Of a stretch of 64,000 nucleotides of DNA, positions 11,620 through 62,606 are shown one piece after another. The translations under genes and the position numbers were made by a program. The notes under the pieces were generated by a model. The model was not told the DNA's origin, ran no database searches, and saw only the letters and a program-made list of their open reading frames with translations. The DNA lies in the NCBI GenBank assembly GCA_964347325.1, contig CAYFYA010000009.1, forward strand, positions 4,685 through 68,684. The letters are read 5' to 3'. This DNA is from an uncultured Methanomassiliicoccales archaeon. GTDB taxonomy: Archaea > Thermoplasmatota > Thermoplasmata > RBG-16-68-12 > JAJISG01. Each line of letters opens with the position of its first letter. The stretch's first letter is position 1.

Positions 11620-12195
11620 ATGGTCTCCGAGTATCAGATGAAGAGCAAGGTGTGCCTCGTCGGCGAGGCCGCCGTCGGGAAGACCAGCCTGATTAGCCGC
11701 TTTGTGAAGGACGAATTCGACGATCGCTACGTGACCACCTTGGGCGCAAAGGTCTCAAAGAAGGAGATTCAGGTGGAGGTACCCGAGAATGACCTTATCA
11801 TCCAGATGGACATGGTGATCTGGGACATCATGGGGGAGAAGGGCATCAGGGATCTACTCAAAGAGGCCTTCTTCCACGGGGCTCAGGGTATCCTCGCGGT
11901 CTGCGACCTCACCCGCTACTCGACTCTGAGGGAGCTGGACGATTGGGTGCAGTCGGTCTACAACGTGGTGGGAAACATCTCCGTCGTCTACGCCATCAAC
12001 AAGGTTGACCTGAAGGACGAGGTGATGGTCCTCTTTGACGAGAGGGAGGTTGCCATGGCGACGCAGGCCTTCGACGCCCCCCACTTCTACACCAGCGCGA
12101 AGACGGGGGCCAACGTACAGATAGCATTCCAGAGCCTGGCGGACGATATCGTCAGGAGGAACCTGGCCACGGACATCATCCAGCTGGGGCCCTAG
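11620..12195 (+). CDS. Ras/Rab-like small GTPase (paralog 2 of 3)
   Basis: GEAAVGKTS, YVTTLGAK switch I, WDIMGEK, NKVDL, TSAKTG. Located between pyrF and the ATP synthase operon. Confidence 0.85.
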   Translation: MVSEYQMKSKVCLVGEAAVGKTSLISRFVKDEFDDRYVTTLGAKVSKKEIQVEVPENDLIIQMDMVIWDIMGEKGIRDLLKEAFFHGAQGILAVCDLTRYSTLRELDDWVQSVYNVVGNISVVYAINKVDLKDEVMVLFDEREVAMATQAFDAPHFYTSAKTGANVQIAFQSLADDIVRRNLATDIIQLGP

Positions 12196-24930: not shown

Positions 24931-25572
24931 GTGCATCGCTTAAATCAGGATGAGGGCTTCATGCCGACAGTGGCGCCGAAAGAAGCCAAGGCTCTGTTGA
25001 CGGAAGCTCAGCGGGCCCTCGAGGCGGGCCAATTCGAAGATGCGAAGCGGGTCATCGAGGATGCCTACGCTCAGCATCCGCACGATGAGAAGGTTCTCGA
25101 GCTGTACCAGCAGATTCTCCTGGCGGACGGTGTCCGCCTCTCCCGGAGGGCCCGCGATCTGCGACGAGACGGCATCAAAGCCTTGGACAAGCGCGATAGG
25201 GCTTCCTTCAGCGATGGCGAGGATGTTAGGGCGGCCTTCGAGAGGTCCATCGAGAGTTTTGACAAGATCCTAGCGGCCAACCCTGAGAACTCTAAGGCCC
25301 TGATGCTGAAGGCTGGTGCCTTGGACAGGATGGACAGAGAGGGCATGGGGGAGGAGGTGTCGGCGCTGTTCGAGAGGGCTCTGGAACTCCATCCGGATAA
25401 CGAGGAGATCCTCTACGCGAGAAGCAGAATAATGGGGGCGTGTCAGCATTGCGGAGGTTCTGGATTCTGCGGTGAATGCAAAGGTTCGGGGGAGGTCTCA
25501 GCCGTCTTCATGCGAGGTGCATGCCCAGCCTGTAAGGGGTCGGGCGTATGCACTCACTGCGGTCTCTTCTGA
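24931..25572 (+). CDS. TPR-like helical protein with C-terminal DnaJ-type CxxCxGxG zinc-finger repeats
   Basis: Four repeats: CQHCGGSG, CGECKGSG, CPACKGSG, CTHCG. The helical N-domain is TPR-like. The alternative start M at 24961 is more likely. Confidence 0.65.
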   Translation: MHRLNQDEGFMPTVAPKEAKALLTEAQRALEAGQFEDAKRVIEDAYAQHPHDEKVLELYQQILLADGVRLSRRARDLRRDGIKALDKRDRASFSDGEDVRAAFERSIESFDKILAANPENSKALMLKAGALDRMDREGMGEEVSALFERALELHPDNEEILYARSRIMGACQHCGGSGFCGECKGSGEVSAVFMRGACPACKGSGVCTHCGLF

Positions 25573-26039
25573 GGGGACAACTCGATATCCGCTACCGCAG
25601 GAGGATCGACCAAGTCAGTTGTTGCGGCCCGTGGACTAGCCGGGGGTCTAGGATCGACCCTGAGGATTCCGGCTTCTTCCGCTAGGTCGTGGGAGAATTC
25701 CATACACTGGTAGGTATGCTGGCCAAGGATGTTGGCCGGGATCGTGACGTTGAAGACCGTGCTCCTCGCAGGGACCACAAGGCCGAATATACCGAAGTTT
25801 GGCAGTGCGAATGTGTGTTGCACGTCCCCCGAGCTGATGTTGAGGATGATCACGTCTCCGAGCGTCACGTTGATTTCGTCAGGGTCAATGCCTGAGAGGG
25901 ACATCTCCATTTTGATGTACACTTTCGGAGCGTCGGGGATATGTACGGGCTCCGTGGGTCTGTAGAGCAAAGCGAAGATTATCGTGACAAGCAGGAAGAT
26001 GATGAAGAGGACCATAGCACTCCTCATCCAGGGCTGCAT
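25554..26039 (-). CDS. membrane-anchored cupredoxin-like protein
   Basis: N-terminal TM helix, then a beta-rich domain with candidate copper ligands HTFALP...YQCMEFSH. Confidence 0.55.
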   Translation of the reverse strand: MQPWMRSAMVLFIIFLLVTIIFALLYRPTEPVHIPDAPKVYIKMEMSLSGIDPDEINVTLGDVIILNISSGDVQHTFALPNFGIFGLVVPARSTVFNVTIPANILGQHTYQCMEFSHDLAEEAGILRVDPRPPASPRAATTDLVDPPAVADIELSPQKRPQ

Positions 26040-26252
26040 GTTGGCTACATAACTATCTAGGCTTTAATATTATTGCCTCTCGATAATCAATCCTGGCACC
26101 GTGACGTCTCTTCGTCTGGGCGGGGTGGACCGGAGGCGCCGGGAGGAAATTGCGGGACGACAAGTCCCGGAATATGGGATAGCCAGGAACCCCCTAACGT
26201 ATTTATACGCCAGCATCCTACGCCGACCGGGCGTGGGAGCACTGGAGGGTTG

Positions 26253-26900
26253 ATGGTGGCGAAGGGAGACCACAAAACAACTTCCACCGGGCTTGCGCTC
26301 GTTGGACTTCTGGTCTTTCTCACGACCCTTACAGGGATCCCGGTGCCGGTGGCGGCGGGACCCGTGACCGTGACCTACGTCATTGAGCTCACGGACGCTC
26401 TTACCTTCGAACTAGATCAGATCATCACGGCGCCGGGGGCAAACGTCACACTTCACTTGAGAAACGTCGGACAGGCGCGACACACATTCACACTTTATAG
26501 TGATGTGAACGTCTCACTCCCGCTGGACACCGAACAGGCCCTGTTCGCCTACTACCAAGACCAGCTAACGGCCTTGATTCTGGATGAGACTCTGGAGGGT
26601 GGGGAGGAGCGAACGGTCAACTTCACGGCCCCTGAGACTGTAGGGATCTACGCCATTGCCTGCATGATCCCCGGCCACGCAAGGGGGGGCATGGTGGGCT
26701 CGATGGTGGTTGGGGCGGTCGGGGGACTTCCGGCGGAGGAACCTGAAGCCGAGCAGGGCATTCCCCTCAGGGCTTACTGGATCGGACTCATTGGTATCTT
26801 CGCCATGATTGCCGTGATTGGAGTGGCCTATTTCGCCATCAAGTCTGAGAGTCGCCACCACACCGACCAGAGGGAGCACAGGAGGCGAGGACTGCCTTGA
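26253..26900 (+). CDS. halocyanin/plastocyanin-like blue copper protein with C-terminal membrane anchor
   Basis: Signal peptide. Type-1 Cu ligands H(TFTL)...C-M-I-P-G-H-A-R-G-G-M (canonical CxxPGHxxxGM). C-terminal TM helix. Start taken at M 26253. Confidence 0.8.
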   Translation: MVAKGDHKTTSTGLALVGLLVFLTTLTGIPVPVAAGPVTVTYVIELTDALTFELDQIITAPGANVTLHLRNVGQARHTFTLYSDVNVSLPLDTEQALFAYYQDQLTALILDETLEGGEERTVNFTAPETVGIYAIACMIPGHARGGMVGSMVVGAVGGLPAEEPEAEQGIPLRAYWIGLIGIFAMIAVIGVAYFAIKSESRHHTDQREHRRRGLP

Positions 26901-27172
26901 GCGAGCTCATCCGGTCGGAGCCACCCACAGAGTCGCTTGGAGCCCTGGTGATGATCTACATCCTGACATTCATGCTGATCTTCTTTGGAATCCTGGTGGT
27001 CTTGGGACTATTCTACGGATGGAACGTTGTTTGGCTCTCGCTCTGGCTCGGGGCGATCTTCATCGTGGCCGCTGTCATTACAGACCTCTATCGGAAGCAC
27101 TTTTTGCCCGACGAGATGGTTGTCAAAACTAGGATGCCGAAGATCATCCCACGAAGGGAGTTGAGGAAGTAG
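26897..27172 (+). CDS. small two-TM membrane protein
   Basis: 91-aa hydrophobic ORF translationally coupled between the halocyanin and Rieske genes. Confidence 0.5.
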   Translation: MSELIRSEPPTESLGALVMIYILTFMLIFFGILVVLGLFYGWNVVWLSLWLGAIFIVAAVITDLYRKHFLPDEMVVKTRMPKIIPRRELRK

Positions 27173-27922
27173 ATGCCTCGAAGAGGAATTCCAGAGGATG
27201 GGATTACTCGCCGGACCTTCCTTAAAGGAGCGTCAATCGCCGGTGGTGCGGCTCTTGCGGGCGTTGGCGTGTACGGAACAGTTCGGTCGCTCGTATCCCC
27301 GCCGGTAACTGTCCAAGGAACCGTTCAGGATACCTTCATCTACGTGCGACCAGAGGGGGCGCTCCTCCCGATCTGGTACGACGGCCTATTCGGCGAGGAG
27401 GCTCGTCTCAGCCACTTCGACGTCGAGCGTGGTGCCAATGTCCTATGGAAGGTCGTCATCGATGGTGACGGACAGATTGTACCTTTCACCGGCTTCCCCG
27501 GTCTCATCCTCAGGATGGAGGAGGACGTCCTCGAGTTTCCCGAAGGCTTCCCGCGGGACGATTATGTGCTGAACGGCCTCTACGCTATCTTCAATTGCTG
27601 TCCGCACGCCTGCTGCCGTCCCGGGTTCCAGTTAATACCCAGGACTTCCTACTTGATCGATCCAGGCTACGAGACCGTGTACTGCCCCTGCCACGACTCT
27701 CAGTACAACCCTCGGCGCCTCGAAAAGTCGGCTCACCCCCCGCCCCCGGATGCCAGCGGAGCTGAGTATGTCGGTATCTACAAGGAACCCGGTCTTGGCC
27801 CTGCCGACCGAGGAATGCCACTGATTCCCCTGGAGCTCGAGGGGGACAAGCTCGTAGGCGTTGCAAAGAACGAGTCTTGGTACCAGTACCTGGACTTCAA
27901 GCGGCGCGTCATTCCGGAGTGA
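27173..27922 (+). CDS. petA: Rieske [2Fe-2S] iron-sulfur protein with Tat signal
   Basis: Twin-arginine signal RRTFLKGASIAGGAALAG. Rieske boxes CCPHACC (CxH) and CPCHDS (CxCH). Confidence 0.85.
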   Translation: MPRRGIPEDGITRRTFLKGASIAGGAALAGVGVYGTVRSLVSPPVTVQGTVQDTFIYVRPEGALLPIWYDGLFGEEARLSHFDVERGANVLWKVVIDGDGQIVPFTGFPGLILRMEEDVLEFPEGFPRDDYVLNGLYAIFNCCPHACCRPGFQLIPRTSYLIDPGYETVYCPCHDSQYNPRRLEKSAHPPPPDASGAEYVGIYKEPGLGPADRGMPLIPLELEGDKLVGVAKNESWYQYLDFKRRVIPE

Positions 27923-28689
27923 GACACTTGGCTAGGAAGCCCTTTGGCGGACTGAGGAAGTACATCTTCGACTGGTTCGCCGAGCGCTTCCCTGTTACAC
28001 CGTGGGCCGAGGCTACCAGGAAGGCCTTCCTCTCAATCCATCGTCAGATGCCCAGGAGCCACGCTGAGAAGTATGAGCTCAAGACCATCTGGTACTGGTA
28101 CCCTCTGTACTGCCTAGGCGGCCTGGCGTTCATTAGTTTCATAATCCTGACGATTACGGGGATAGTCCTGGGGTTCTACTACGTTCCAGACGGCAACATC
28201 CGCATCCTCTCCGATGGGAGCACCACGTCCGGGGCCTATGAGAGCCTCGTGTTCATCATGGGTGAGGTGCCCTTGGGTTACGTCTGGCGCGGCGTCCACC
28301 ACTGGGCTGCACACATCTTCGTAGCGGCCGTCTTCCTCCACATGGCGCGGGTCTACTTCACCGGCGCTTACAAGAAGCCACGGGAGCTCAACTGGATCTT
28401 CGGGATCCTTCTCCTCCTGATCTCCCTCGGGTTTGGCTACACCGGCTACCTGCTCCCGTGGAACAGCCTGGCTTTCGCTGCTGCGACCATTGGCATCAAC
28501 ATGGCCAAGTCGATTCCGATCATAGGGGATCTAACGGCCGAAATCATGTTTGGGGGCCTATCCCTCGGGGCGAACACTGTCCTCAGGATGTACTGGCTTC
28601 ACATATTCGTCCTCCCGCTGATCGGGATTGGACTGATGCTCCTCCACATGACCATCGTCTGGGTTCAAGGAGTGGCCGAACCTCACTGA
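27919..28689 (+). CDS. petB: cytochrome b (b6-like N-terminal heme-binding half)
   Basis: YFTGAYKKPRELNWIFGILLLLISLGFGYTGYLLPW and conserved His in TM helices. GTG start overlapping the Rieske stop. Confidence 0.85.
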   Translation: MRHLARKPFGGLRKYIFDWFAERFPVTPWAEATRKAFLSIHRQMPRSHAEKYELKTIWYWYPLYCLGGLAFISFIILTITGIVLGFYYVPDGNIRILSDGSTTSGAYESLVFIMGEVPLGYVWRGVHHWAAHIFVAAVFLHMARVYFTGAYKKPRELNWIFGILLLLISLGFGYTGYLLPWNSLAFAAATIGINMAKSIPIIGDLTAEIMFGGLSLGANTVLRMYWLHIFVLPLIGIGLMLLHMTIVWVQGVAEPH

Positions 28690-28698
28690 GGTGGAGCA

Positions 28699-30057
28699 GT
28701 GCAGAGTAGAGCGGTGGAGAGCGTCGTCACAGAAAGGCGGGTCGGGTTTCCAACCCAATACGGGCCAACTAGGACCGACAAGAAGCCCGGACATGTCCTC
28801 GTGCCCCACGAGGCCTACAGGGACCTAGTCTTGATTCTAGTCATGACAGGGGCGATGTTCATCCTGACGGCCGTTGCCACGCCCGCTCTCGGCAAGTCCG
28901 CCAATCCAAACGTGGTGGCCGAGGTCGAGCTCCCCGATTGGTACCTCCTCTGGTCATGGGGCCTGCTGAAGATCTCAGAGCTCTTCCCCCAGTTCTCCAT
29001 CTTTGGTTTCACCATCACTACCCTGACCTGGGGTGCTGTTCTCTCCGGCGTCCCCTTCATCATTGTACTACTGCTCCCCTTCATAGACAAGGGGTTTGAG
29101 AGAAGGCCTGCCAAGTCTCCCATCCGGGCTGCCTTCGGCGTGGCCGGTATCGTCTGGGTCTTCGCCGCTTCGGTCTACTCCGTCAACGTCCTGATTCTGC
29201 CCCGCTTCACCACAGCTGAGGGGCTCTCCATCGTTACCGACGATACCCTGAAGTGGATGTTCATCGTCCAGCCAGTCCTATCGGGCATGGTCACCTACAT
29301 CGCCATGAGGCGGCTCGCCTTCAAGCCCATGAGGAGATACAACACCGCTTTCAACGCCTTTGCCCTCTCCATCGTCCTCCTGATCACAATTCTCCTCCTG
29401 GGTTCTGGGCTCGCGGCAGGGGGAAGCTTCGCATCCCACCTGACAGGCCAGAACGTCTACCTGACGTTCTACGTCAGCATCGCAGTCCTAACCACCCTCG
29501 TCGCCCTCTTCATTGTGTTCTTCCAGGACGAACAGCGGGGTAGGCGGACGCTGTTCCTGTGGATCGGCCTGGCGTTTCTACTCCTGGTCCCCCTCACTTG
29601 GTACCTGATGGCCTTCGACCAGCAATCCTTCGACTACGTCCAAGTCTACATCATGACAAACGCCCACATCTTCATCGCCTTCCCCGTCTTCTCAGTTCTG
29701 GTGGCCTACTTCGGCCAGCGGACGCCCTACAGCGACTACGAGTACAAGCTAAACGAGTGTTACCAGTGCGGTCGGTGCCACCTAGTCTGTCCCATCACTA
29801 AGGTGGAGGCCGATGCCCTCGGGGGGCTCAACCTGGTCTACAACGTCTACAAGCGCCAGCACGACGGCGTCCCGATGTGGTCCTGCCTCACCTGCGACGC
29901 CTGCAGTGCTGTCTGTCCCCTAGACATAAACTACTCCGCGTACGTGTTGACGGAGCGGGCGAAGGTCATGAAGGCGAAGCAGCGAATTCCGACGGAGAGG
30001 CCGACCATGGTTTCCGGCCTTACGGTGGCCGACGGCGGTACGGAGGTGAGGCCCTGA
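28699..30057 (+). CDS. cytochrome b C-terminal/subunit-IV-like domain fused to extra TM helices and a 2x[4Fe-4S] ferredoxin domain
   Basis: PDWYLLW (PEWY-type Qo motif) in a multi-TM region. C-terminal CYQCGRCHLVCP and CLTCDACSAVCP (two CxxCxxCxxxCP motifs). Confidence 0.75.
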   Translation: MQSRAVESVVTERRVGFPTQYGPTRTDKKPGHVLVPHEAYRDLVLILVMTGAMFILTAVATPALGKSANPNVVAEVELPDWYLLWSWGLLKISELFPQFSIFGFTITTLTWGAVLSGVPFIIVLLLPFIDKGFERRPAKSPIRAAFGVAGIVWVFAASVYSVNVLILPRFTTAEGLSIVTDDTLKWMFIVQPVLSGMVTYIAMRRLAFKPMRRYNTAFNAFALSIVLLITILLLGSGLAAGGSFASHLTGQNVYLTFYVSIAVLTTLVALFIVFFQDEQRGRRTLFLWIGLAFLLLVPLTWYLMAFDQQSFDYVQVYIMTNAHIFIAFPVFSVLVAYFGQRTPYSDYEYKLNECYQCGRCHLVCPITKVEADALGGLNLVYNVYKRQHDGVPMWSCLTCDACSAVCPLDINYSAYVLTERAKVMKAKQRIPTERPTMVSGLTVADGGTEVRP

Positions 30058-30068
30058 GGCCGGAGGAG

Positions 30069-31061
30069 ATGGGATTCCCCATGAGAGATCTGACGGCAGG
30101 GGAGCGCACCGTCCCTCACCCGATCATGTTCGCCGCCCTCGACAAGGAGGCGGAGTGGGAGGACATCCCCGACGTCGAGATTACGCAGAAGAGTGACTAC
30201 GCCTACTATCCGGGCTGCGTCGACTACTACGACTACGAGATGCAGTTCAGCAGGAACAACTTCGGGGATACGGACCACGGCATCATCTTTGACTCCTCAA
30301 TCAAGCTCCTGAAGGCCATCGGCATTGCCCCCGTTGTCCTGGATCGCTCCTTCATGAAGTGCTGTGGCCACGACCAGCTCTGGCAGGGGAAGGTGGACGT
30401 CTGGACAAAGCTGCGGGAGTACAACGAGAGACTCATGAAGCGCATCTTCGAAGAGGCCGGAGTCAAGACGCTAGTCGTCAGCTGCGCAGAGGGCTATCGC
30501 ACCTTCAAGCTCGATTACGACCTCGGAGAGGTGGAGGTAAAGCACATCACTCAGGTGCTCTACGACCAGGGCATCGAGTTCCGCACTCGCAGGAAGGAAC
30601 TTATCACCTACCAGGATCCCTGCCGGATGTGCCGCCAGATGCCCATAGATCCCGTCTACGAGGAGCCGCGGGAGCTCATCCGCCAGACCGGGGCTGACCT
30701 TGCGGAGATGGAGCACTTCCGGGCGGACGCGACCTGTTGCGGCGTCGCGGGGATGATGTACTGCAACGAGAAGACCAAGGGGATCACGAACGACCGCATG
30801 ATGGAGGCGAAGGAGAGGGATGTGGACTACCTCCTCACAGCGTGTCCGAAGTGTCTGACCCATTTCGGTTGCCAGCAGCACGAAAACTTGTACAGAGAGG
30901 ACCGGGAGGCCTTTCGGTTCCAGGTCATCGACATCACCCAGTACCTGGCCGAATGTCTCGACGAGACCTCCGCTGAAGCCCTGGCGGGTGAGAGGGACGA
31001 GGTGGATAAGCCCCTCCCGAGCCCTGTGGCCAAAGGTGGAGGGTCGGAGGCCTCGCCTTGA
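30069..31061 (+). CDS. CCG-domain protein (HdrB/GlpC/HdrD-like), two cysteine-rich CCG domains
   Basis: YYPGC...CCGHD...C and DPCRMC...TCCGVAGMM...CPKC form two Cx(n)CCGx(n)CxxC modules. Confidence 0.8.
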   Translation: MGFPMRDLTAGERTVPHPIMFAALDKEAEWEDIPDVEITQKSDYAYYPGCVDYYDYEMQFSRNNFGDTDHGIIFDSSIKLLKAIGIAPVVLDRSFMKCCGHDQLWQGKVDVWTKLREYNERLMKRIFEEAGVKTLVVSCAEGYRTFKLDYDLGEVEVKHITQVLYDQGIEFRTRRKELITYQDPCRMCRQMPIDPVYEEPRELIRQTGADLAEMEHFRADATCCGVAGMMYCNEKTKGITNDRMMEAKERDVDYLLTACPKCLTHFGCQQHENLYREDREAFRFQVIDITQYLAECLDETSAEALAGERDEVDKPLPSPVAKGGGSEASP

Positions 31062-31468
31062 CGGAGACACAGGCCGTGCACGAGCCGAGACTGGCGCGTC
31101 ACCGCTCCCGTCAGACGGCGAAGAAGAGCTTCGACGAGATGCGGCGCAACTTCGTCATCAAGTATCCGCGCGGGAAGGGCGTGGTGGCCTACGTCTACGA
31201 GGATATCTGCATGGGCTGCATCCACTGCGCAGACAACTGTCCTGAGAACGTTAGGCCCGATCACGAGGATGCCATCGTCTTCACGGACAAGACATCCTAC
31301 TTGCCCGACCTCAGCTTCGAGACGAGAAAGTCCCTAATCGTGGATGAGAACTGCATCGGGTGCGCCAAGTGCGCGGTCATATGTCCGGTGGAGGCCATTG
31401 TCATGGTCCCACGACCAGGCTGGGAGGTCGTGGACGGTCAACCGGTTGAGATGAAGTCGGAGGCGTGA
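31058..31468 (+). CDS. 2x[4Fe-4S] ferredoxin (NuoI-like)
   Basis: CMGCIHCADNCP and CIGCAKCAVICP. The N-terminal FVIKYPRGKG resembles the NuoI TxxYPxEKG region. Confidence 0.7.
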   Translation: MTETQAVHEPRLARHRSRQTAKKSFDEMRRNFVIKYPRGKGVVAYVYEDICMGCIHCADNCPENVRPDHEDAIVFTDKTSYLPDLSFETRKSLIVDENCIGCAKCAVICPVEAIVMVPRPGWEVVDGQPVEMKSEA

Positions 31469-31794
31469 CCTTGGGTGAAGCTGACGAGGTTCATGAGAGG
31501 CCCCGCTGGCCCCGTAAGATGACCCGGAAGGCGGAGATGAGGCTCATCAAGCAGCTCCCGGGTCTCCAGAAGATCATCCTCATCACCAAGGTCTCTGCCG
31601 TCATCCTCTTCGCAATCGGCCTGGAGGGGCTCTTCATAGGGAACTGGTGGATGGCTGGCATCTTCCTCACCCTGGGCCTAATCTTCACGATTTGGCCCAT
31701 CAAGATGGATGTCCCCAACTTGTGTCCCAAGTGTGGGCAGGCGGCCAAGAAGAATCAGACCGTCTGCCACAACTGCGGAGTCGCCCTCATGTAG
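31465..31794 (+). CDS. small membrane protein with C-terminal zinc ribbon
   Basis: Two TM helices then CPKCG...CHNCG. Last gene of the operon. Confidence 0.5.
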   Translation: MTLGEADEVHERPRWPRKMTRKAEMRLIKQLPGLQKIILITKVSAVILFAIGLEGLFIGNWWMAGIFLTLGLIFTIWPIKMDVPNLCPKCGQAAKKNQTVCHNCGVALM

Positions 31795-31801: not shown

Positions 31802-33211
31802 TCAGCCCCTGGGGACCCATAGCAGCCTCGAGGGGTTGATAACGAGAGGTAGATCCACCCTAGCTTTGATCTGACGGACTAGGCCGAAACGCCTCTCAGC
31901 ATCGGCGTCAGGATCCAGGAGATGGATGAGCTGGCTGCTCCGCAGCCTGCACGGGTGTTTCCCGGCAATCTCCAACAGCTCCACGGCGCGGTCGAATCGC
32001 TCACCTCGTCCCGCTCGTTCGGTGACGAAGGGAATTAGGCTGACCGTACCCCCTTCGTGGAGGGAGCCAGCCAGACCAACGGCCGGTCCGCGGACCTCCT
32101 GCCAGCTTGCCAGATCCGCCAGGAGCGGTGGAAGGTCCGCCGTGGAGAGTCGGATTTCTGCCAGGGGGGTCATCCGCGGCTCCCTCGTGACTCCCGATGT
32201 CTGGCCGTAGACGCCGTCCTCTCTCAGAAAACCTTCGCCGAAGGCGGTATCGACGGCCCTTACCTGGGCTCCAAAGGTTTCCTCTGTTCCGTGGAGGAAC
32301 ACAGTCACGTTTTCGCCCTTCCTTTCCGGAGCGTCCCTCGAGGAGGTCGTGTCGCCGAAGAAGACCGCTAAGGGGTGGACTCCAACCCCGGGGATTTTCT
32401 GGAGGGTAGTTCCCACCTCCTCCCAGTCCTTTAGGATGTACGTAAGGGATCTGAGGTCTTCTGCTGAAGGCATCAGCGAGAAGGTCACGGAAAGCGGTAT
32501 GGTAAGACTGCCTCCAGCCAACAGTAGCAACGAGTTCAGGTCGTAGCCAGTCGCGTTGTTGGGTACTTCGTCGAAGCCGCTTTCGCCGTACCCCCCGTCG
32601 GATCCGACGAAGTCCACGTTCCTGATGCAAGTCTCGGGACCTCCTCTGTAAGAGGACAGGATTGTCTCGCCGCGGACGATGTCGCCCATGAAGGAGTCCA
32701 TGGGCAAGGTAGCAAAGAGGGGCAGAAACCAGCCCGCCGCCCTCGCAGCGTCACAGGCGTCGCTCCACCTGGCGCCCACACCGGCTCTAAGGATGCCGTT
32801 CTCCTTGTCGACGTCCACATCGTCGAAGGATGAGAGGTCCAGCAGGAAGCCATCCAACTGTGGGAGGACTTCGCCATCGAAGGGGTCGACCCGTGGAGTC
32901 CAGTCCACGGTGACTTCGCGGTCCCTCATCATCTCTAAGCTCCGGCGGACGTAGTGGAGGGTGTCGCCTTTGAGACCGAGGCTTACAGACGCCACCTCTC
33001 CAGTCGCGACACCGATGGCACTGGAGACGTCGTCCGCCTCTTCCATCGGCAACGTGACAACACTGACGCCATCGAAGAGTCGCTTCAGCTCCTCCGGAAG
33101 TACGCGCCTGTCTCTGAGGTAGAGGGCCTTTGCCTGCTCCGTACTTCGGAGGGTTCTCAATCCAGGCAGGCCAGAGACCATGTCCCTGAAGTCAGCGTAA
33201 GGGATGGGCAA
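31802..33211 (-). CDS. FAD-binding oxidoreductase (divergent GlcE-like subunit)
   Basis: PCMH-type FAD-binding N-domain pattern. Translationally coupled to the upstream GlcD-like gene. Confidence 0.6.
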   Translation of the reverse strand: MPIPYADFRDMVSGLPGLRTLRSTEQAKALYLRDRRVLPEELKRLFDGVSVVTLPMEEADDVSSAIGVATGEVASVSLGLKGDTLHYVRRSLEMMRDREVTVDWTPRVDPFDGEVLPQLDGFLLDLSSFDDVDVDKENGILRAGVGARWSDACDAARAAGWFLPLFATLPMDSFMGDIVRGETILSSYRGGPETCIRNVDFVGSDGGYGESGFDEVPNNATGYDLNSLLLLAGGSLTIPLSVTFSLMPSAEDLRSLTYILKDWEEVGTTLQKIPGVGVHPLAVFFGDTTSSRDAPERKGENVTVFLHGTEETFGAQVRAVDTAFGEGFLREDGVYGQTSGVTREPRMTPLAEIRLSTADLPPLLADLASWQEVRGPAVGLAGSLHEGGTVSLIPFVTERAGRGERFDRAVELLEIAGKHPCRLRSSQLIHLLDPDADAERRFGLVRQIKARVDLPLVINPSRLLWVPRG

Positions 33212-33212
33212 T

Positions 33213-34733
33213 CTACCTCCTCCTTCTGGTCTTGGTCACGTACTTCTCCGAGGGCATCAGCCACCGGAGACGCCCAAGGGCCCTCAAGCCGAACCTCATC
33301 AGGCCGGGGGGTATCTCCGGTGGCACGAGCGGGGGCTTCCTTCCCATGGTCCCCACCAGCTTCCCCCGGTTGACCACGGCCTCGGGGTCGACGGCTTCCT
33401 TGATGGCCCTGAACATCCCACTCACGTTTCCGAACATGGTCTCCAGGTTGTAAGTCATCAGGAGCCCCAGCCCCAGAGGATGGCCCCCCGTATCTGTGAG
33501 AATCCTGTGAAACTTCTCCACGAACGTAATAGCGAGCTGTCCCCGAAGGAGCCTCTCGTTCGTAAGCATGTAGGGGGCCAGGTAGGCCGAACCGCGGTCG
33601 ACGAGGAACCCGTGGAAGGCCACCTCGCCTTTGGACTTCCTTCCGGCCTTCTGAGTGGCCTCCATAACGTGACCCAAGGCGCTCAGGGGCACTAGTCCCT
33701 CCCCGACGACGAGCCCGCCAGAGATTCGCCGCGCATTGTAGGGCTCGTGCCGTCCCTCCCAGAGAGCCGTCGCCACCTCACTGCCCTCCTTCACGCCACC
33801 CGCAGCGGACAGTACCGTTCCAGCGTAGACATCCTCCTCAGCGATGCTCTCCTTGTCCCCTTGGTAGGCCAGGTAGGCCATGGCAGGTCGCTCCGGAAGG
33901 GACTTCCCGATCCCTGCCTGGAGGGTGAGATGAGCACCGTCGACGAACCCGACGTGGTAGGGGGTAATGCAGATTCTGGAGAGTTGACGGAGGGCGCTAA
34001 CGATACTCTGAAGTGACTCGAAGCTGTAGGCGGAGACGCTCGTGGCCTTGGGCCTGGGAATGAGCTGTAAGGTTGCCTTCGTAATCACGCCAAGCGTCCC
34101 CTCAGCGCCCAAGAAGAGGTTCGTCGAGTTGTGGTTTCCCAGACCCAACCCGAAAGTCCGCACACCCGTCTCCAGAATCTCCCCTCCTGGGAGTACGACC
34201 TCGAGGCTCCTGACCCAACGGGAGGGGGGACCGTACATGTATGAGCCTATTCCGACTCCACCGTCGCTGAGGAATCCGCCCACGGTGGAGGACCTGTGAA
34301 GGATTGGGACTACTGGGAGGGCGAGGTCCTGCTCGCCCAATGCCTCGGAGGCCTGATGCCACGTTGCACCCGCTTGGACGGTAACGCACGACCGAATCTC
34401 ATCTGGGTCGTCCACTCTCTTCATCAGGCTGGTGACCATCAGAATGCCCCCGACATTTGGCACTGAACCCCCGTGGAGGGAGGTGCCCCCGCCGCGGGGG
34501 ACGACCGGAATCTCCAGCTCCTCCCCCAGCTGTAGGATCCGAACGACCTCTTGGGTGGACTTGGGCAGTGCAATGATGTCTGGCTTCATGTTGAACTGCA
34601 GGCCAGCCTGCTTCGGGATCGGAGCCAAATCGTGGCCATAGACGAGCTTCTCCGTCTCAGAGGTCGAGACCCGCTCCTCTCCGAGGGTGTCTACGAGCCG
34701 TTTATAAGCGTAGCTAAGGTCGCTGTAAACCAT
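33213..34733 (-). CDS. FAD-linked oxidase (GlcD / D-lactate dehydrogenase family)
   Basis: VVPRGGGTSLHGGSVP FAD-binding motif and the GlcD-like C-terminal domain. Confidence 0.8.
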   Translation of the reverse strand: MVYSDLSYAYKRLVDTLGEERVSTSETEKLVYGHDLAPIPKQAGLQFNMKPDIIALPKSTQEVVRILQLGEELEIPVVPRGGGTSLHGGSVPNVGGILMVTSLMKRVDDPDEIRSCVTVQAGATWHQASEALGEQDLALPVVPILHRSSTVGGFLSDGGVGIGSYMYGPPSRWVRSLEVVLPGGEILETGVRTFGLGLGNHNSTNLFLGAEGTLGVITKATLQLIPRPKATSVSAYSFESLQSIVSALRQLSRICITPYHVGFVDGAHLTLQAGIGKSLPERPAMAYLAYQGDKESIAEEDVYAGTVLSAAGGVKEGSEVATALWEGRHEPYNARRISGGLVVGEGLVPLSALGHVMEATQKAGRKSKGEVAFHGFLVDRGSAYLAPYMLTNERLLRGQLAITFVEKFHRILTDTGGHPLGLGLLMTYNLETMFGNVSGMFRAIKEAVDPEAVVNRGKLVGTMGRKPPLVPPEIPPGLMRFGLRALGRLRWLMPSEKYVTKTRRRR

Positions 34734-34788: not shown

Positions 34789-35238
34789 CTAGATTCCCAG
34801 GGCCTCTGAGATGCTATCCTTCAGCTGGTCAGCGTCCAGGCCCTCATAATCCAAGTCCAGGGCGCGAGCGACGGCCTTGAGCTTGGACTTGGTGACCTTC
34901 TCTAGGGAGGCGATGATGGCCCGCTTCAGGTCCCGCTCCTTACGGCCCAGAACCTCGATGTCAAGCTCCTGCGCGGCCTCCACGACTCGGGGACTTATCT
35001 CAACCACTGTCTGTATTGGCCTCTCAGATCTGGCCTCGGCAAGCTCCTCCTGTATCTCTCTCTCCACCCTGGCCCTTCCCCGTCGAAACTCCCCCAAGGC
35101 CCGTCCAATACCACGAGCTAGCTCGGGAATCTTCTTCGGCCCAAGCAGGAGCAGGACGGCGATTATGACCAGAATGATGATGGGCTCGAATCCCGACAAT
35201 CCAAACTGCGCGACGATATCGGGGAGCGAGGGCAACAC
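34789..35238 (-). CDS. tatA: twin-arginine translocase subunit TatA/E with extended charged C-terminus
   Basis: FGLSGFEPIIILVIIAVLLLLGPKKIPELARGIGRALGEFRRG. The exact start (TTG or GTG) is uncertain. Confidence 0.75.
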   Translation of the reverse strand: MLPSLPDIVAQFGLSGFEPIIILVIIAVLLLLGPKKIPELARGIGRALGEFRRGRARVEREIQEELAEARSERPIQTVVEISPRVVEAAQELDIEVLGRKERDLKRAIIASLEKVTKSKLKAVARALDLDYEGLDADQLKDSISEALGI

Positions 35239-35328
35239 CAAGAGTACACCTACCAAAGAGTAGTAGCTTCAGAGGCATATATCTTTTTGCAGCCTGGATA
35301 GCTTCAGGCACGGCCCAGAGGACAGCTC

Positions 35329-37041
35329 TCAGCTCTCAGATAGGACCGTGAAGATGGCCCCGAACCTGAGGTCGACGTAGAATGTGAAGGTGAACTCTGA
35401 GGCAAAGTCCCCGCTAACCCAGGAGGTGAGGCCTTCGGCGTGGGTCCAGGATGAGGATCTCGTCATGAAGAGGTGGATGCCGTAGGCGTCCAAGGTCTCA
35501 TCCTCCACACCCGCTGCAAAGGTGTACGTCTGGTTGGGGTCAAGCAGTTCGGACGCCGTCGCCTCAAGCCTCCAGTCTGGGCTTGTTGAGGAGAAGATAC
35601 CGCTCCTCAGCTTCATCAGCTGCCCCGGGTCGGGGGGTCGGATACCCGACTCGCTCAGCTCTACCGAATCCGTTGATCCGGGCGACGCACTGTAGCTTAC
35701 CACGTACGACTCCCCCTGGACCGCCTCCCCCGGATCGAGGAGTGAGTTTCGGTTCGCATCGGAGAACTCCTTTCGGAGAAGAAGGCTGTAGCCGAGATTG
35801 AGACCTAGCATGTAGACCAGAGAGTCCCCATTCGATGCCGAAAGGACCAGTTCATCGTTATCGGGGGATTCCCATAGAGCCGGGAGGAGGGTCAGTTCAT
35901 CGGGCGCGCTGACGTGCAGGGCACTACTCGCTGGTTCCTCGGCTTCGAAGGTGACCTCCAGTCCCTCGTCCGAGGTTCCTGACCAGAGGAGGATGACCGG
36001 CGTCTCGTTACTGGCCTCCAGGACACTCCCCGTTCGGACGCCCGGGGCAAAAGGGCTGGCTGAGTAAAGCACAAACCCCGGAACTTGCAGGGTCACGTTT
36101 CCGGTGGTCAGGAGGGTATCCGCCCTCGCAAGGGGTGGTGCCAGAAGGCCCTGGTTGAAGTAGAGAAAGCCCCCAACGCTGGCCACCACGACGACTGCGA
36201 CCACGGACCAGACAGCGACGGCCGACCTACCGCCCCTTTCCGGGGGTTCTTGCCCTTCGCGTCTGCTCCAGGCCCTCCTCGACATGAGGTAGCCTCCAAC
36301 GTAGAGGAGGGACATGGGGACCGCCACAAGGAACATGGTGATCCCGCTTCCATCGGGCGTGATGAAGGCTCCGAAGAGAAAGAAGGCGATAGTCGCATAC
36401 CGCCAGTTCCGCTTCCAGAAGTCGGGACCGATTATTCCCAACGCTCCAAGCCCCCACATGATCACAGGGGTCTGGAAGGCCAATCCCATTCCGACGAAGA
36501 AGAGGAGGACAATATCGAAGAACTGTTCCGGCCCCACCAAGGGAGCCAGCCCCATGTTAACCCCAATGCCGTAGAGAAAGTCGAAGGCGAAGGGGAGAAT
36601 CACGAGCTGGGCGACCAGGACCCCGCCCACAAACAGCAGCGTTCCTGGCACCGTTATCTTGAGGATGATTCTCTTCTCCCTCTCGTAGAGCCCCGGCGCC
36701 ACGAACTTGGCCAACTGGTAAACAATCCATGGCATCGCCGTAAGCACGGCCAGGAACAGGGAGACCTTGAACTGGGTGACGATGGCCTCCCAGGGGTTCA
36801 ACTGCACCCGCTCGACGAAAACGGGCAGCAGGCTGTCCATGAAGCCCCGGATCACCATGACGGAGATGGAGTTGTAAAACTCTGGCCAGGGATAGGGCCA
36901 AGGTACGCCGAGGTATGGCTGTACGCGAATGGTGAAGCTCATGTAGAACACGAAGAGTGGCATCACCACCCACAGAATCTTGAAGACCCTCTGGCGCAGC
37001 TCCTCCAGGTGCTGGAGGATACTCATCGGCCGGTCTCCCAT
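35329..37041 (-). CDS. tatC: TatC with ~300-aa C-terminal extracytoplasmic extension
   Basis: N-terminal TatC signature (SILQHLEELRQRVFKILWV..., 6 TM). An extra TM helix and a Ser/Thr-rich domain follow the TatC core. Confidence 0.8.
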   Translation of the reverse strand: MGDRPMSILQHLEELRQRVFKILWVVMPLFVFYMSFTIRVQPYLGVPWPYPWPEFYNSISVMVIRGFMDSLLPVFVERVQLNPWEAIVTQFKVSLFLAVLTAMPWIVYQLAKFVAPGLYEREKRIILKITVPGTLLFVGGVLVAQLVILPFAFDFLYGIGVNMGLAPLVGPEQFFDIVLLFFVGMGLAFQTPVIMWGLGALGIIGPDFWKRNWRYATIAFFLFGAFITPDGSGITMFLVAVPMSLLYVGGYLMSRRAWSRREGQEPPERGGRSAVAVWSVVAVVVVASVGGFLYFNQGLLAPPLARADTLLTTGNVTLQVPGFVLYSASPFAPGVRTGSVLEASNETPVILLWSGTSDEGLEVTFEAEEPASSALHVSAPDELTLLPALWESPDNDELVLSASNGDSLVYMLGLNLGYSLLLRKEFSDANRNSLLDPGEAVQGESYVVSYSASPGSTDSVELSESGIRPPDPGQLMKLRSGIFSSTSPDWRLEATASELLDPNQTYTFAAGVEDETLDAYGIHLFMTRSSSWTHAEGLTSWVSGDFASEFTFTFYVDLRFGAIFTVLSES

Positions 37042-41463: not shown

Positions 41464-43539
41464 TTGTCAGCCCTGGCATGGATTGTTGACATCTCGTGGC
41501 TCATCGTGGCCTCACCCCTTCTGGCCTTCGCCGTCGTCCTAATCTCAGGGAAGAGGCAGTGGCAGGGTGGAGCCCTTTGGACCATCGGGTCCATCGGACT
41601 CTCCTTTGTGCTGTCGATGATCCTTCTAATCCACGCCCTCCTCAACGGCGCCCTGGGAGGACACTTCGAGCCTGTGGAAACGGTCTGGTATCGCTGGATC
41701 GGCCCCGAGGGCTCCGGCTTCGCTATTCACCTCGGCATGCTCATCGACAACCTCAGCGTCCTCATGCTGGCCGTCGTCTCCTTCCTCTCCCTTCTCATCG
41801 CGATCTACTCCCTCGGATACATGGGCCGCGAAAAGGACAAGGCCCGCTACTACTCCCAGATCGCCCTCTTCGTCACGGGAATGCTGGGGACGGTCTCTGC
41901 CAACAACTTCCTCCAGCTCCTCATCTTTTGGGAGATAATGGGGCTCTGCTCCTACCTGCTGATCGGCTACTGGTATCATAAACCCGAGGCGGCCAGCGCG
42001 GCGAAGAAGGCCTTCATTGTCACCCGAGTGGGCGACATCATGTTTCTGGCGGGCGTCATCGCGGTCTTCATCATCTTCGGCACCTTCAACATCCTGGAGG
42101 TGTCGAGACTAGCACAGGGGGTTCCGGTACATCTCATCCTCATCGTCCCCGTCCTGTTCTTCGGAGGCGCGATGGGCAAGAGCGCCCAGTTTCCTCTCCA
42201 CGCGTGGCTGCCGGATGCCATGGAAGGCCCCACAACGGTGAGCGCCCTCATCCATGCGGCTACCATGGTGAAAGCCGGCGTCTACCTCACGGGCCGGGCT
42301 CTCCCGCTGGTGGCGAACTCCCTCGACGCCAGCCTCCTGGTGGCCTTCATCGGAGGCTTCACAGCCTTCTTTGCCGCCACCATGGCCCTGGCCAACTACG
42401 ACATCAAACGTGTCCTCGCCTTCTCCACCATCAGCCAGCTGGGCTACATGTTCCTCGCCCTGGGTACCGCGGCCTATGCCATACAGGTCGGCTTGGAGGG
42501 CTCGGGAGAGGCCTATGGAGCGGCCTTCTTCCATCTGACAAACCACGCCTTCTTCAAGGCCCTCCTCTTCCTCGGTGCTGGGAGCGTCATCCATGCCGTG
42601 GGCACCAACGACATGAGGAAGATGGGGGGGCTCCATGCGAAGATGCGCATCACCTCCCTCACCATGCTCATAGGGGCCATTTCCATCAGCGGCATCTTCC
42701 CCTTCAGCGGTTTCTGGAGCAAGGACGAGGTCCTGGCCACGGCCTTTGGTGCCTCGGGGGTGGAACAGACCTTCCTCTTCCTCTGGATCCTGGGGGTCCT
42801 CACCGCCTTCATGACCGCCTTCTACATGTTCCGCCTCTGGTACATGACCTTCCGGGGGTCCCCCCGCTGGGAGACGGAGCCCCACGAGTCGCCCAAGGTC
42901 ATGACCACGCCGCTGATGATACTCTCCCTCTTCGCCGTCGGCTCAGGTCTTGTGATATTCGCGATGGGAGGTTTCAGCAACTTCATCTTTCCGGGGGTAG
43001 AGGGAGCCCATCCAGAGTTCTCGAACCCAGTCGACATTTTACTGAAGACCTTCACTGGTGCCGGGAGCTTCTCGACGTACGTCTCTCTTCTCCTGGCCCT
43101 CGCTGGCCTCGGCCTCGCCAGGACCATCTACCTGCGGAATCGCCCGTCGCCTGACGTCTTCACAGCCACACGCTCCCGGGCCTCCCTACACACGATGCTT
43201 GAGCGGAGGTATTGGATCGACGACCTCTACGATTACATCGGAGCCAAGGTGGTCTACGGCCTGGCGAGGTTGAGCGATTTCATCGACCGCTACATCATAG
43301 ACGGCTTCGTCAACCTGGTGGCCAGGGGAACCGTCTTCACGGGTCGAGGAACCGACATCTTCGATCGGAAGGGTGTCGATGGCGTGGTGAACGGCATCAG
43401 CCTGAGGACCATCAGGGGAGGGTGGACACTACGGCGAGGCGAGACGGGTCAGGTTCAGACCTACGCTGCGATCATCATCCTCGGAGCGGCCTTCGTTCTC
43501 TTCCTGATCCAGGTTGTCTTTCCACTTCTGGGGGTGTGA
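41464..43539 (+). CDS. nuoL: NADH-quinone oxidoreductase subunit L
   Basis: 691-aa antiporter-like subunit with the long C-terminal helix region. Confidence 0.9.
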   Translation: MSALAWIVDISWLIVASPLLAFAVVLISGKRQWQGGALWTIGSIGLSFVLSMILLIHALLNGALGGHFEPVETVWYRWIGPEGSGFAIHLGMLIDNLSVLMLAVVSFLSLLIAIYSLGYMGREKDKARYYSQIALFVTGMLGTVSANNFLQLLIFWEIMGLCSYLLIGYWYHKPEAASAAKKAFIVTRVGDIMFLAGVIAVFIIFGTFNILEVSRLAQGVPVHLILIVPVLFFGGAMGKSAQFPLHAWLPDAMEGPTTVSALIHAATMVKAGVYLTGRALPLVANSLDASLLVAFIGGFTAFFAATMALANYDIKRVLAFSTISQLGYMFLALGTAAYAIQVGLEGSGEAYGAAFFHLTNHAFFKALLFLGAGSVIHAVGTNDMRKMGGLHAKMRITSLTMLIGAISISGIFPFSGFWSKDEVLATAFGASGVEQTFLFLWILGVLTAFMTAFYMFRLWYMTFRGSPRWETEPHESPKVMTTPLMILSLFAVGSGLVIFAMGGFSNFIFPGVEGAHPEFSNPVDILLKTFTGAGSFSTYVSLLLALAGLGLARTIYLRNRPSPDVFTATRSRASLHTMLERRYWIDDLYDYIGAKVVYGLARLSDFIDRYIIDGFVNLVARGTVFTGRGTDIFDRKGVDGVVNGISLRTIRGGWTLRRGETGQVQTYAAIIILGAAFVLFLIQVVFPLLGV

Positions 43540-43542
43540 CGA

Positions 43543-53085: not shown

Positions 53086-53152
53086 GCAATGTCTCCGATT
53101 CGATAATCAACGGGAAAACTACAATAATGGCACCTGGAAACCAGATCTCGGG

Positions 53153-61321: not shown

Positions 61322-61346
61322 TCCTCTTCCCCTGGACGGGTGGATT

Positions 61347-62498: not shown

Positions 62499-62606
62499 GT
62501 TCAGCTACCCCTTCTCGTATTGAGCCCTCGTCTTATTAACCCTTTTAGAGTCGCCGAAGAGGTCACTGAGGACGACCCAGACGTTTGTCGACAGCTGTGC
62601 GTCAGG

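Follow-up and report, generated by a model that had tools for sequence, protein, structure and literature searches.

Subunit IV of an archaeal Rieske/cytochrome b complex is fused to a cytoplasmic HdrC-like iron-sulfur domain

Results

A subunit IV-ferredoxin fusion protein

The DNA analyzed here is a 64,000-nucleotide stretch (the window) of contig CAYFYA010000009.1, from an uncultured Methanomassiliicoccales archaeon (assembly GCA_964347325.1), and our subject is the gene at positions 28699..30057 of its forward (+) strand. It occupies the fifth place among eight closely spaced genes (overlapping by 4 nt or 0-11 nt apart) that encode a Rieske/cytochrome b complex. It starts with GTG, just 3' of a Shine-Dalgarno-like GGTGGAG, and its 452-residue product unites in one protein a cytochrome b subunit IV (helices E-H), four extra transmembrane (TM) helices and a heterodisulfide reductase HdrC-like 2x[4Fe-4S] domain. 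A sequence-only reading of the stretch had described a single open reading frame (ORF) of 452 codons with a PDWY Qo-site region and two C-terminal CxxCxxCxxxCP motifs, and exactly this can be read from the DNA.

The region of homology to the cytochrome b C-terminal domain, or subunit IV, spans residues 22-171 (28762..29211) and includes the Qo motif PDWY at residues 79-82 (28933-28944). The four additional TM helices lie within residues 212-339 (29332..29715). They are followed by the ferredoxin domain at residues 341-430 (29719..29988), which carries the two cysteine motifs C354-x2-C357-x2-C360-x3-C364-P365 (29758-29793) and C396-x2-C399-x2-C402-x3-C406-P407 (29884-29919); all of these features are on the + strand. 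Pfam, phmmer and alignment agree that a subunit IV homologue and a 2x[4Fe-4S] domain share this polypeptide. With the Pfam model Cytochrom_B_C the fusion is a borderline case at 19.8 bits, below the cutoff of 20.7, and the relatives P0136 (48.7 bits) and P0135 (32.6 bits) exceed that cutoff. In a phmmer search of the PDB, residues 22-171 align to residues 240-401 of actinobacterial QcrB (E 1.5e-6 to 8e-6), and the top four Foldseek matches of the fusion model in the PDB are again actinobacterial QcrB, albeit weak ones (E about 1e-2). The N-terminal half thus combines subunit IV homology, a P[DE]W[YF] motif after helix E, and cytochrome b and Rieske genes as neighbors.

The C-terminal domain matches Fer4_8 at residues 351-410 (Pfam, E 4e-8) and Fer4_17 (E 3e-6), and residues 339-421 align to HdrC in the PDB (5odc_C, E 1.5e-4, phmmer). 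Its best NCBIfam matches are HdrC, GlpC, GlcF and QmoC, each far under its cutoff; the HdrC equivalog TIGR03290 gives 26 bits against a cutoff of 160. Based on these comparisons, we regard the domain as homologous to HdrC and not as an HdrC orthologue. An alignment of 32 orthologues, the most distant with 43% identity, shows no variation in PDWY, in the two prolines or in any of the eight cysteines, and conservation along the protein is highest in the Fe-S domain. PDWY is likewise found in 16/16 fused representative clusters (see below). As had been noted from the sequence, a di-cluster ferredoxin on the subunit IV polypeptide is atypical when set against the textbook bc1 and b6f complexes.

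The fusion is conserved in more than 100 orthologues

A word-indexed protein search with the fusion returned 197 matches, 120 of which were listed. The listed homologues come from NCBI, JGI, ENA and Logan, are 42-100% identical to the query and mostly 427-467 residues long, and cover more than 80% of it; nearly all are full length (P0026, with 368 residues, is partial) and none among them is split. More than 100 uninterrupted full-length orthologues with 42-84% identity are thus represented in four independent data sources. P0001, which is 100% identical to the fusion, occurs on 4 contigs, and the same ORF is found in 12 genome loci from metagenome-assembled genomes (MAGs) of Thermoplasmata/Thermoplasmatota. 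A clade at 45% identity consists of soil Thermoplasmata MAGs, according to cluster names and accession numbers; Marine Group II, which had come to mind for this clade because of a cytochrome b, Rieske protein and orphan RnfB described by Tully (2019), was rejected on the same grounds. One close homologue, P0043 (48% identity, 94% coverage), has 682 residues rather than about 436 and might represent yet another fusion, perhaps to the CCG protein introduced below.

The possibility that a subunit IV gene and a ferredoxin gene were wrongly joined in assembly or annotation is refuted by this conservation, and we give it next to no credence. Independent assemblies from four repositories supply more than 100 proteins of identical architecture, and the 12 genome loci share it. 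The junction near 29700 is contiguous in the orthologues, among which no split into subunit IV and ferredoxin was found, and the sequence that leads from the eighth TM helix into the Fe-S domain, R341-x-P-Y-S-x-Y-E-x-x-L-N-E-C354, is invariant in the 32-sequence alignment.

The Fe-S domain faces the cytoplasm

An AlphaFold2 model, computed from the 32-sequence alignment, contains TM helices at residues 37-59, 108-130, 139-169, 190-206, 212-239, 250-275, 278-306 and 308-339. Predicted local distance difference test (pLDDT) values are 80-97 for the TM region and 81-97 for the four extra helices. The protein therefore has eight helices in total, one before PDWY and seven after it, and not about eight further helices beyond the Qo region as the sequence-only reading had it. 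In a crude hydropathy scan helix H fell short of the threshold and segments came out merged or doubled, and we relied on the AlphaFold2 helices and on charge counts instead.

The Fe-S domain is cytoplasmic, that is, on the membrane's n side, as helix count, charge bias, four-helix relatives and partners without signal peptides all indicate. The N-terminus corresponds by homology to the start of subunit IV, which is on the n side, and with an even number of helices the C-terminus must lie there too. The predicted inside loops carry at least 19 lysine and arginine residues versus 4 in the outside loops, a pattern that is family-wide. Four relatives, P0124, P0139 and the CCG-fused P0126 and P0136, have helices E-H only (4 TM) and then the Fe-S domain; in P0124, P0139 and P0136 helix H runs directly into it. 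Finally, neither the CCG protein nor the RnfB-like ferredoxin of the operon has a signal sequence, and the Rieske protein carries a twin-arginine translocation (TAT) signal. The side of the membrane that the ferredoxin domain faces, which the earlier reading had left to topology prediction, is thus settled by helix parity, charge bias and the short relatives. A cytoplasmic location places the domain near haem bH and the Qi site, and hence away from the Qo site, the one that includes PDWY.

The four extra helices bear on the question of whether the Fe-S domain is connected to the haems at all. One could imagine that subunit IV is a mere anchor, and that the Fer4 and CCG domains form a quinone reductase that needs no haem, of the GlcF/GlpC/type-E SdhE type, which would reduce pool quinone at a site of its own without electronic contact to haems bH and ci. 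GlcF, GlpC and LdhH are indeed among the NCBIfam matches of both halves of the module, the confidently modelled extra helices could form a lipid-facing quinone pocket, and closeness to complex III would still allow substrate channelling. Enzymes of the GlcF/GlpC kind associate with the membrane through their Fer4-CCG subunit and are not known to contain haem. However, the extra helices are poorly conserved, with no conserved histidine or invariant polar residue in the 32-sequence alignment, and Foldseek found no fold match for them in the PDB, where only QcrB matched the fusion. They are also missing from the 4-TM and CCG-fused relatives, which nevertheless keep the Fe-S domain; the 4-TM variants lack any further membrane domain in which a quinone site of their own could reside, so that the cofactors of the cytochrome b core alone are available. 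In addition, EtfD, the sole solved membrane-bound relative, passes electrons from its cubane clusters to haem and not directly to quinone, and the conserved haem-ci motif of the adjacent cytochrome b6 lies on the same side as the Fe-S domain. On balance, a reductase that is only tethered to complex III appears unlikely.

The operon encodes a b6-type Rieske/cytochrome b complex

The first gene of the operon (26073..26900, +) encodes a membrane-anchored type-1 (blue) copper protein with a weak Pfam match to Copper-bind/SoxE at residues 170-214 and the motif C-x2-P-G-H-x4-M (ACMIPGHARGGM); its true start is likely the ATG at 26253 (MVAKGDHK...). In the periplasm this protein probably takes up electrons from the Rieske protein, and its gene keeps its place upstream of the DUF7318 and Rieske genes in related loci. 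Divergent from it, at 25554-26039 (-), lies a gene for a 161-residue protein with an N-terminal membrane helix and no Pfam match, which is kept at that place in L003, L007 and L008 (38-42% identity) and whose sequence (HTFALPNFG...YQCMEFSH) looks cupredoxin-like.

The second gene (26897..27172, +) overlaps the first by 4 nt and encodes a small membrane protein of the DUF7318 family (Pfam, E 1.5e-13). It stands directly upstream of the Rieske gene in loci L001-L015, in L017 and in the context of P0131, and its product is a candidate conserved subunit of the archaeal Rieske/cytochrome b complex. The third gene (27173..27922, +) encodes the Rieske [2Fe-2S] protein, with weak Pfam matches to TAT_signal and Rieske and an NCBIfam TAT signal match (E 1.8e-5). 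Both Rieske boxes, C-x-H-x-C-C and C-x-C-H-x-S-x-Y, are kept in 13/13 orthologues. The Ser/Tyr pair of box II, present in all 13, coexists with the Qo motif PDWY, an unusual and unexplained pairing: the Ser/Tyr pair is associated with high-potential clusters of about 300 mV (PMC3509893), yet PDWY has been linked to low-potential Rieske proteins and menaquinol (Kao & Hunte, PMC4122944).

The fourth gene encodes a four-helix cytochrome b6-type subunit (ORF 27877..28689, +; Pfam Cytochrome_B, E 2e-38), with a probable GTG start at 27919 that overlaps the Rieske stop codon as GTGA. It matches the NCBIfam cytochrome b6 model over its whole length (E 3.5e-59). Its conserved histidine pairs, H141/H155 and H242/H257, are spaced by 14 and 15 residues, which we take to be the spacing of the haem ligands in chloroplast cytochrome b6. 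The haem-ci motif Y-C79-L-G-G is present in 18/18 sequences, including those of the distant loci L016-L019 (as YCFGG in L016). The complex thus has a split cytochrome b with CxGG in helix A, as b6f-type complexes do.

The cytochrome b6 gene and the fusion (27919-28699) share a reading frame and are separated by TGA and the codons GGT GGA GCA. The same relation holds in L001, L003 and L011 and does not hold in L005, L007, L010 and L013. Programmed read-through of the cytochrome b6 stop codon was therefore rejected, the frame relation not being kept across loci and probably being a coincidence.

Downstream of the fusion follow a gene for an HdrB/EtfD-like protein with two CCG domains (30069..31061, +; Pfam CCG, E 2.3e-17) and, overlapping it by 4 nt, one for an RnfB-like 2x[4Fe-4S] ferredoxin without signal peptide (31058..31468, +; Pfam Fer4_7 and Fer4_21; NCBIfam rnfB, E 4.6e-10), whose 8 cysteines are conserved in 13/13 orthologues. 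The last gene of the operon (31465..31794, +) encodes a small membrane protein with a C-terminal zinc ribbon (weak Pfam DZR/zinc-ribbon matches) and is kept after the ferredoxin gene in L001-L015, loci in which the gene order of the whole operon is identical, down to 44% identity.

On the opposite strand, 7 nt from the operon and convergent with it, lie genes for a GlcE-like protein that binds flavin adenine dinucleotide (FAD) (31802..33211, -; Pfam FAD_binding_4, E 4e-7) and a GlcD-like D-2-hydroxyacid dehydrogenase flavoprotein (33213..34733, -; FAD_binding_4, E 4e-34, and FAD-oxidase_C). Genes for TatA (34789-35256, -; Pfam TatA_B_E, E 8e-11) and TatC (35329-37041, -; Pfam TatC, E 1.5e-50) come next; they are syntenic with the operon and probably supply the export machinery for the Rieske protein. 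The TatC protein is 570 residues long, its TatC domain (residues 10-242) being followed by an extension of about 330 residues without a Pfam match; in L013 and L015 TatC has just 284-288 residues. All related loci that are long enough, down to 44-46% identity, keep the same succession of genes from the copper protein through TatC, and the block is flanked by an A-type ATP synthase operon and a Nuo operon.

The adjacent CCG protein completes a split HdrD

The CCG protein finds its best PDB match in EtfD of M. smegmatis (9ojn_A, E 1.5e-11 over 223 residues), with HdrB next (E 8e-6); its best NCBIfam match is TfrB (E 4.6e-25). Because HdrC and HdrB together correspond to HdrD, the operon encodes a split HdrD with its ferredoxin half fused to subunit IV: the ferredoxin domain and two CCG domains that characterize this class are all present, here distributed over adjacent genes. 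The membrane partner is not a NarI-type b-haem protein, the anchor being subunit IV of a Rieske/cytochrome b complex.

In CCG domain 1 the conserved ligands are C50, C98, C99 and C139, together with H101, and in CCG domain 2 they are C185, C223, C224, C259 and C262, together with C232, C268 and H265. The HdrB-type set of five cysteines is complete in domain 2; in domain 1, where CAEG replaces CxxC, the conserved cysteines number four. The pattern of domain 1 varies by lineage (CCG and CAEG here, CCG and CAEC in L016, CTG and CAEC in L019), and each lineage retains at least four cysteines. The set C50/C98/C99/C139 differs from that of the ligands of the linear [3Fe-4S] cluster in EtfD, C503/C538/C581/C584 (PMC13083937). 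Domain 1 probably retains a cluster, of a type that is not predictable from its residues.

These features are relevant to the direction in which electrons might flow. If the flow were outward, complex III would bifurcate: of the two electrons of quinol oxidized at Qo, one would go to the Rieske protein, the copper protein and O2, and the other would travel via bL and bH/ci to the cubanes, on to the CCG clusters and finally to a disulfide or ferredoxin in the cytoplasm, much as in HdrDE and as has been proposed for the Rieske/cytochrome b complexes of anammox. The module is HdrC plus HdrB by homology, its second CCG domain keeps the five HdrB-type cysteines, and the distant L016 and L019 variants, described below, would fit as well, with HdrC/HdrB copies, an FAD protein, polyferredoxin and FlpD/MvhD-like proteins that are typical of Hdr-type bifurcating systems. 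On the other hand, the CCG protein is nearer to the shielded, non-catalytic EtfD than to HdrB, its domain 1 lacks one HdrB cysteine, and no genes for a thiol cofactor were seen nearby. The step from bL to bH already has the membrane potential against it, and a continuation to ferredoxin potentials would be strongly uphill. HdrDE does use the same chain from membrane haem to CCG site (PMC13083937; PMC4683180); however, relatives with the present cluster have been described as aerobes (PMC9038741), and catalytic noncubane clusters are oxygen-sensitive (PMC13083937). Outward flow therefore strikes us as distinctly improbable. If it were true, the complex would be a hybrid of a Rieske/cytochrome b complex and a heterodisulfide reductase, in which aerobic respiration is coupled to the production of low-potential reductant.

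Single-chain relatives unite all three parts

In an exhaustive HMMER scan of 1.84 billion representatives, the architecture of the window's protein was found in 4 clusters (at 50% identity), and about a dozen more combine PDWY with both Fe-S motifs. Five of these proteins, P0126, P0131, P0135, P0136 and P0141, join Cytochrom_B_C, Fer4 and two CCG domains in one chain, and P0140, P0142 and P0146 show the same set of motifs, so that the single-chain class makes up 8/16 of the representative clusters with PDWY and both Fe-S motifs. All single-chain fusions for which context was retrieved adjoin a cytochrome b gene. Upstream, the P0136 cluster has a Rieske gene that Pfam recognizes, and the other single-chain contexts have an unassigned ORF at that place; the one in L019 aligns with the Rieske protein of the window, and DUF7318 lies beside P0131. 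These Rosetta-stone fusions show the ferredoxin domain, the CCG domains and subunit IV to act as one unit.

Two of the distant loci, L016 (5092-13875) and L019 (3541-13074), contain single-chain fusion operons together with genes for polyferredoxin and FlpD/MvhD-like proteins. The L016 operon also has a multihaem cytochrome c and extra HdrC/HdrB-like genes, and the L019 operon an FAD oxidoreductase. These loci suggest that Rieske/cytochrome b complexes are coupled to Hdr-type modules in other, possibly anaerobic, archaea. In L019 (5426-7924) and in the context of P0131, it is the cytochrome b next to the fusion that is 758-832 residues long and has, besides its cytochrome b domain, a Big_5 (bacterial Ig-like) domain.

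A purely regulatory or structural Fe-S domain, which would sense cytoplasmic redox state or oxygen and tune the activity or assembly of complex III, is also conceivable, as Fe-S domains act as sensors in other systems and L017, a variant from a Halobacteria MAG, has the Fe-S domain without an adjacent CCG gene. Two cubanes, two CCG clusters and a di-cluster ferredoxin with all ligands invariant are, however, the classic components of a wire with several steps, and the fact that full HdrD-like modules were fused repeatedly and independently argues for catalysis. We consider a sensor or scaffold highly improbable.

An orphan GlcD/GlcE-like pair adjoins the operon

The pair follows the operon in 10/10 related loci that extend far enough, with the GlcE-like gene directly next to it. 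The pair is an orphan, having no GlcF of its own. In NCBIfam the GlcD-like protein matches glcD (E 4e-45) with 154 bits, below the cutoff of 568, and its PDB matches are D-lactate dehydrogenase (E 5e-35), LctD and glycolate oxidase. This flavoprotein is a candidate electron donor to the Fe-S module. The locus does not amount to a GlcDEF glycolate oxidase, since the pair stands outside the operon, with which it is convergent, and the counterpart of GlcF is divided over two genes.

Elsewhere in the window, a complete operon (55282-59314, +) encodes a GlcD-like protein (482 aa), a GlcE-like protein (435 aa) and a GlcF-like protein (Fer4_8 and two CCG domains), which are paralogous (25-30% identity) to the orphan pair and the split Fer4/CCG module; the two GlcE-like proteins are 28% identical over 126 residues. 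This operon is adjoined by a beta-oxidation cluster at 59845-63965 (acyl-CoA dehydrogenase, thiolase and a fused 3-hydroxyacyl-CoA dehydrogenase/enoyl-CoA hydratase). No EtfAB genes were seen within the window, an observation of some relevance as the nearest solved relative of the CCG protein is EtfD, which oxidizes electron-transfer flavoprotein (ETF).

Other features of the window

The Nuo operon (41464-48165, +) contains four consecutive antiporter-like subunits of 691, 506, 516 and 516 residues, all matching Proton_antipo_M, one above the usual L/M/N set. A duplicated subunit M has been reported for Ca. Angelarchaeales and ammonia-oxidizing archaea (PMC9038741), and the operon here matches that description. 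Two small GTPases of the Ras/Roc family are encoded at 11620-12195 (+) and 53024-53734 (+) (Pfam Ras, E 1.6e-28 and 2.6e-31); after the latter come two ORFs, at 53740-54468 and 54528-55205, without Pfam matches.

Discussion

Relation to known complexes

Both parts of this system were known before, the b6-type Rieske/cytochrome b complex on the one hand and the Fe-S wire of the HdrD/EtfD type on the other; here they are combined. With b6f and with the Bacillus and heliobacterial complexes the present one shares a split cytochrome b6 of four helices with YCLGG and the four histidine ligands of the haems, a P[DE]WY subunit IV, and a TAT-exported Rieske protein in the same operon. A C-terminal fusion to subunit IV also has a precedent, as Bacillus QcrC is subunit IV joined to a cytochrome c. 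It differs in that there is no cytochrome f or c1, with a blue copper protein instead; in that helix H is followed by four more helices and the appended domain is an n-side Fe-S domain rather than a p-side cytochrome; and in three extra subunits, namely the CCG protein, the RnfB-like ferredoxin and the zinc-ribbon protein. YCLGG is the attachment motif for haem ci in the b6 proteins of chloroplasts, cyanobacteria and heliobacteria and in Bacillus-type complexes, and published surveys report CxGG solely from Firmicutes, cyanobacteria and chloroplasts, planctomycetes and some mixed bacterial clades (PMC4122944). The archaeal short cytochromes b analyzed in 2017 were without CxGG (PMC5600118).

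The n-side arm resembles HdrDE, DsrMK and EtfD, which have the same cofactor domains, with the cubanes proximal and the CCG domains distal, in the cytoplasm and linked to the quinone pool. Unlike in those enzymes, the anchor is subunit IV and not a NarI-type cytochrome of 5-6 helices, and HdrD is split, leaving the HdrB-like part free. QmoC, a weak NCBIfam match (E 2.3e-4), likewise has an HdrC-type di-cluster domain covalently joined to a membrane cytochrome subunit. The membrane fold of QmoC is, however, of the NarI/HdrE type and, unlike the fusion described here, has neither a Rieske partner nor a Qo site. As in GlcDEF, a GlcD/GlcE-like pair stands beside Fer4 and two CCG components, with the 55282-59314 operon as an internal reference; unlike in GlcDEF, the GlcF equivalent is split and integrated into the membrane via subunit IV, and scores fall below the NCBIfam equivalog cutoffs. 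The cytochromes b of the PDWF-FeS clade, of which Kao & Hunte (2014) listed a few, have a Qo-type motif and are fused to 4Fe-4S domains, some with an MvhD-like domain (PMC4122944). These are full-length, bacterial, have PDWF and have no Rieske protein in the cluster, whereas the cytochrome b here is split, archaeal, has PDWY and is accompanied by a Rieske protein, so that the fusion does not belong to this clade.

The gene cluster itself has very probably been noticed before, by Diamond et al. (2022, PMC9038741), in the complex III locus of Ca. Angelarchaeales. There, a plastocyanin-like gene lies upstream of the Rieske gene, 'hdrD-like' and 'rnfB-like' genes lie beside cytochrome b, and A/V-ATPase and complex I with duplicated subunit M flank the locus (PMC9038741), a layout that the window shares. 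The origin of the 45%-identity clade in soil Thermoplasmata MAGs is consistent with Ca. Angelarchaeales. The remark runs to two sentences and does not include the subunit IV-ferredoxin fusion, its topology, the haem-ci motif, the GlcD/GlcE pair or the single-chain fusions (PMC9038741). In a literature search that covered few subscription journals, PMC9038741 and PMC4122944 alone gave prior notice of the cluster or the fusion type, and no earlier description of the fusion, its topology, an archaeal haem-ci motif or single-chain subunit IV-HdrD fusions was found.

Proposed mechanism

We propose that the cytoplasmic Fe-S domain is part of an EtfD/HdrDE-like wire through which electrons from the cytoplasm flow inward to haem bH/ci and the Qi site, a reading to which we assign a probability of roughly 55%. 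The b6-type Rieske/cytochrome b complex would bear an extra redox arm on its n side, made of the two cubanes of subunit IV, the HdrB/EtfD-like protein with two CCG domains and the RnfB-like di-cluster ferredoxin. In effect, a split HdrD would be anchored by the cytochrome b core of complex III rather than by a NarI-type cytochrome (HdrE, DsrM or the membrane domain of EtfD). Electrons may enter the CCG clusters from reduced ferredoxin via the RnfB-like protein, from the orphan GlcD/GlcE-like 2-hydroxyacid dehydrogenase, or from both. They would then pass to the two cubanes of subunit IV and on to haem bH and/or haem ci, and quinone would be reduced at Qi. The resulting quinol would be oxidized at the Qo site (PDWY) by the Rieske protein, with exit through the blue copper protein, and complex III would thereby double as its own dehydrogenase.

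The order of cofactors in this proposal follows from the architecture, since its covalent link to the membrane subunit makes the cubane domain the membrane-proximal element. It also agrees with the cryo-electron microscopy structure of EtfD, in which two CCG-bound clusters are distal and two cubanes proximal, followed by a b haem and menaquinone, with steps of 4-9 Å (PMC13083937). In EtfD, electrons run from cytosolic ETF to quinone, and HdrDE uses the same layout in the reverse direction (PMC13083937). We favor inward flow because Ca. Angelarchaeales, relatives with the same kind of cluster, are probable obligate aerobes (PMC9038741) and the CCG protein is nearer to the oxygen-adapted, non-catalytic EtfD than to HdrB, and because the operon includes an RnfB-like ferredoxin and is so consistently adjoined by the orphan GlcD/GlcE pair. 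Diamond et al. (2022) already suggested entry of ferredoxin electrons at complex III in Ca. Angelarchaeales (PMC9038741). Injection at Qi is stoichiometrically equal to the action of an n-side dehydrogenase that reduces pool quinone. The gain would therefore be kinetic, by channelling or by pre-loading of haem ci/bH, and would not lie in additional proton translocation.

Several points weigh against this proposal. We infer, rather than observe, electron transfer between cubane and haem bH/ci, its inward direction, the identity of the donor and the attachment of haem ci. Covalent haem ci on cytochrome b6 is predicted from the motif alone. Contact between the proximal cubane and haem bH/ci is postulated ahead of a structure of the assembled complex; the AlphaFold2 model is unreliable in the Fe-S domain (pLDDT below 50), where its geometry is unusable, and helix H is peripheral in known cytochrome b structures. 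The direction of flow is not readable from sequence, and HdrDE, built from the same parts, runs outward. The four-cysteine CCG domain 1 departs from HdrB, and L017 shows that the Fe-S domain can occur without a neighboring CCG gene. As to the donor, the GlcD/GlcE pair lies on the strand opposite the operon and is absent from the distant fused variants L016-L019, and hence is not a universal partner. Moreover, the ATP synthase genes, the operon, the Tat genes and the Nuo genes are all syntenic in this region, which makes adjacency weak evidence.

Implications

Electron entry from ferredoxin into cytochrome b6f on the n side, via haem ci, has been debated for decades in connection with cyclic electron flow and was never structurally settled. 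The family described here is a natural, hard-wired case, in which a b6 cytochrome with the haem-ci motif is combined with a four-cluster Fe-S chain and a ferredoxin on the n side. With it, the 'electron wire' module of HdrD/EtfD gains a third type of membrane anchor, and the short list of CxGG cytochromes b gains an archaeal lineage. If the wire does end on haem bH/ci, complex III can be its own dehydrogenase, and these proteins would offer a tractable model for n-side electron input. Such a wire would also explain how electrons from ferredoxin or 2-hydroxyacids are re-oxidized in these aerobic Thermoplasmata, whose relatives with the same cluster include the Ca. Angelarchaeales that bear copper membrane monooxygenase (CuMMO).

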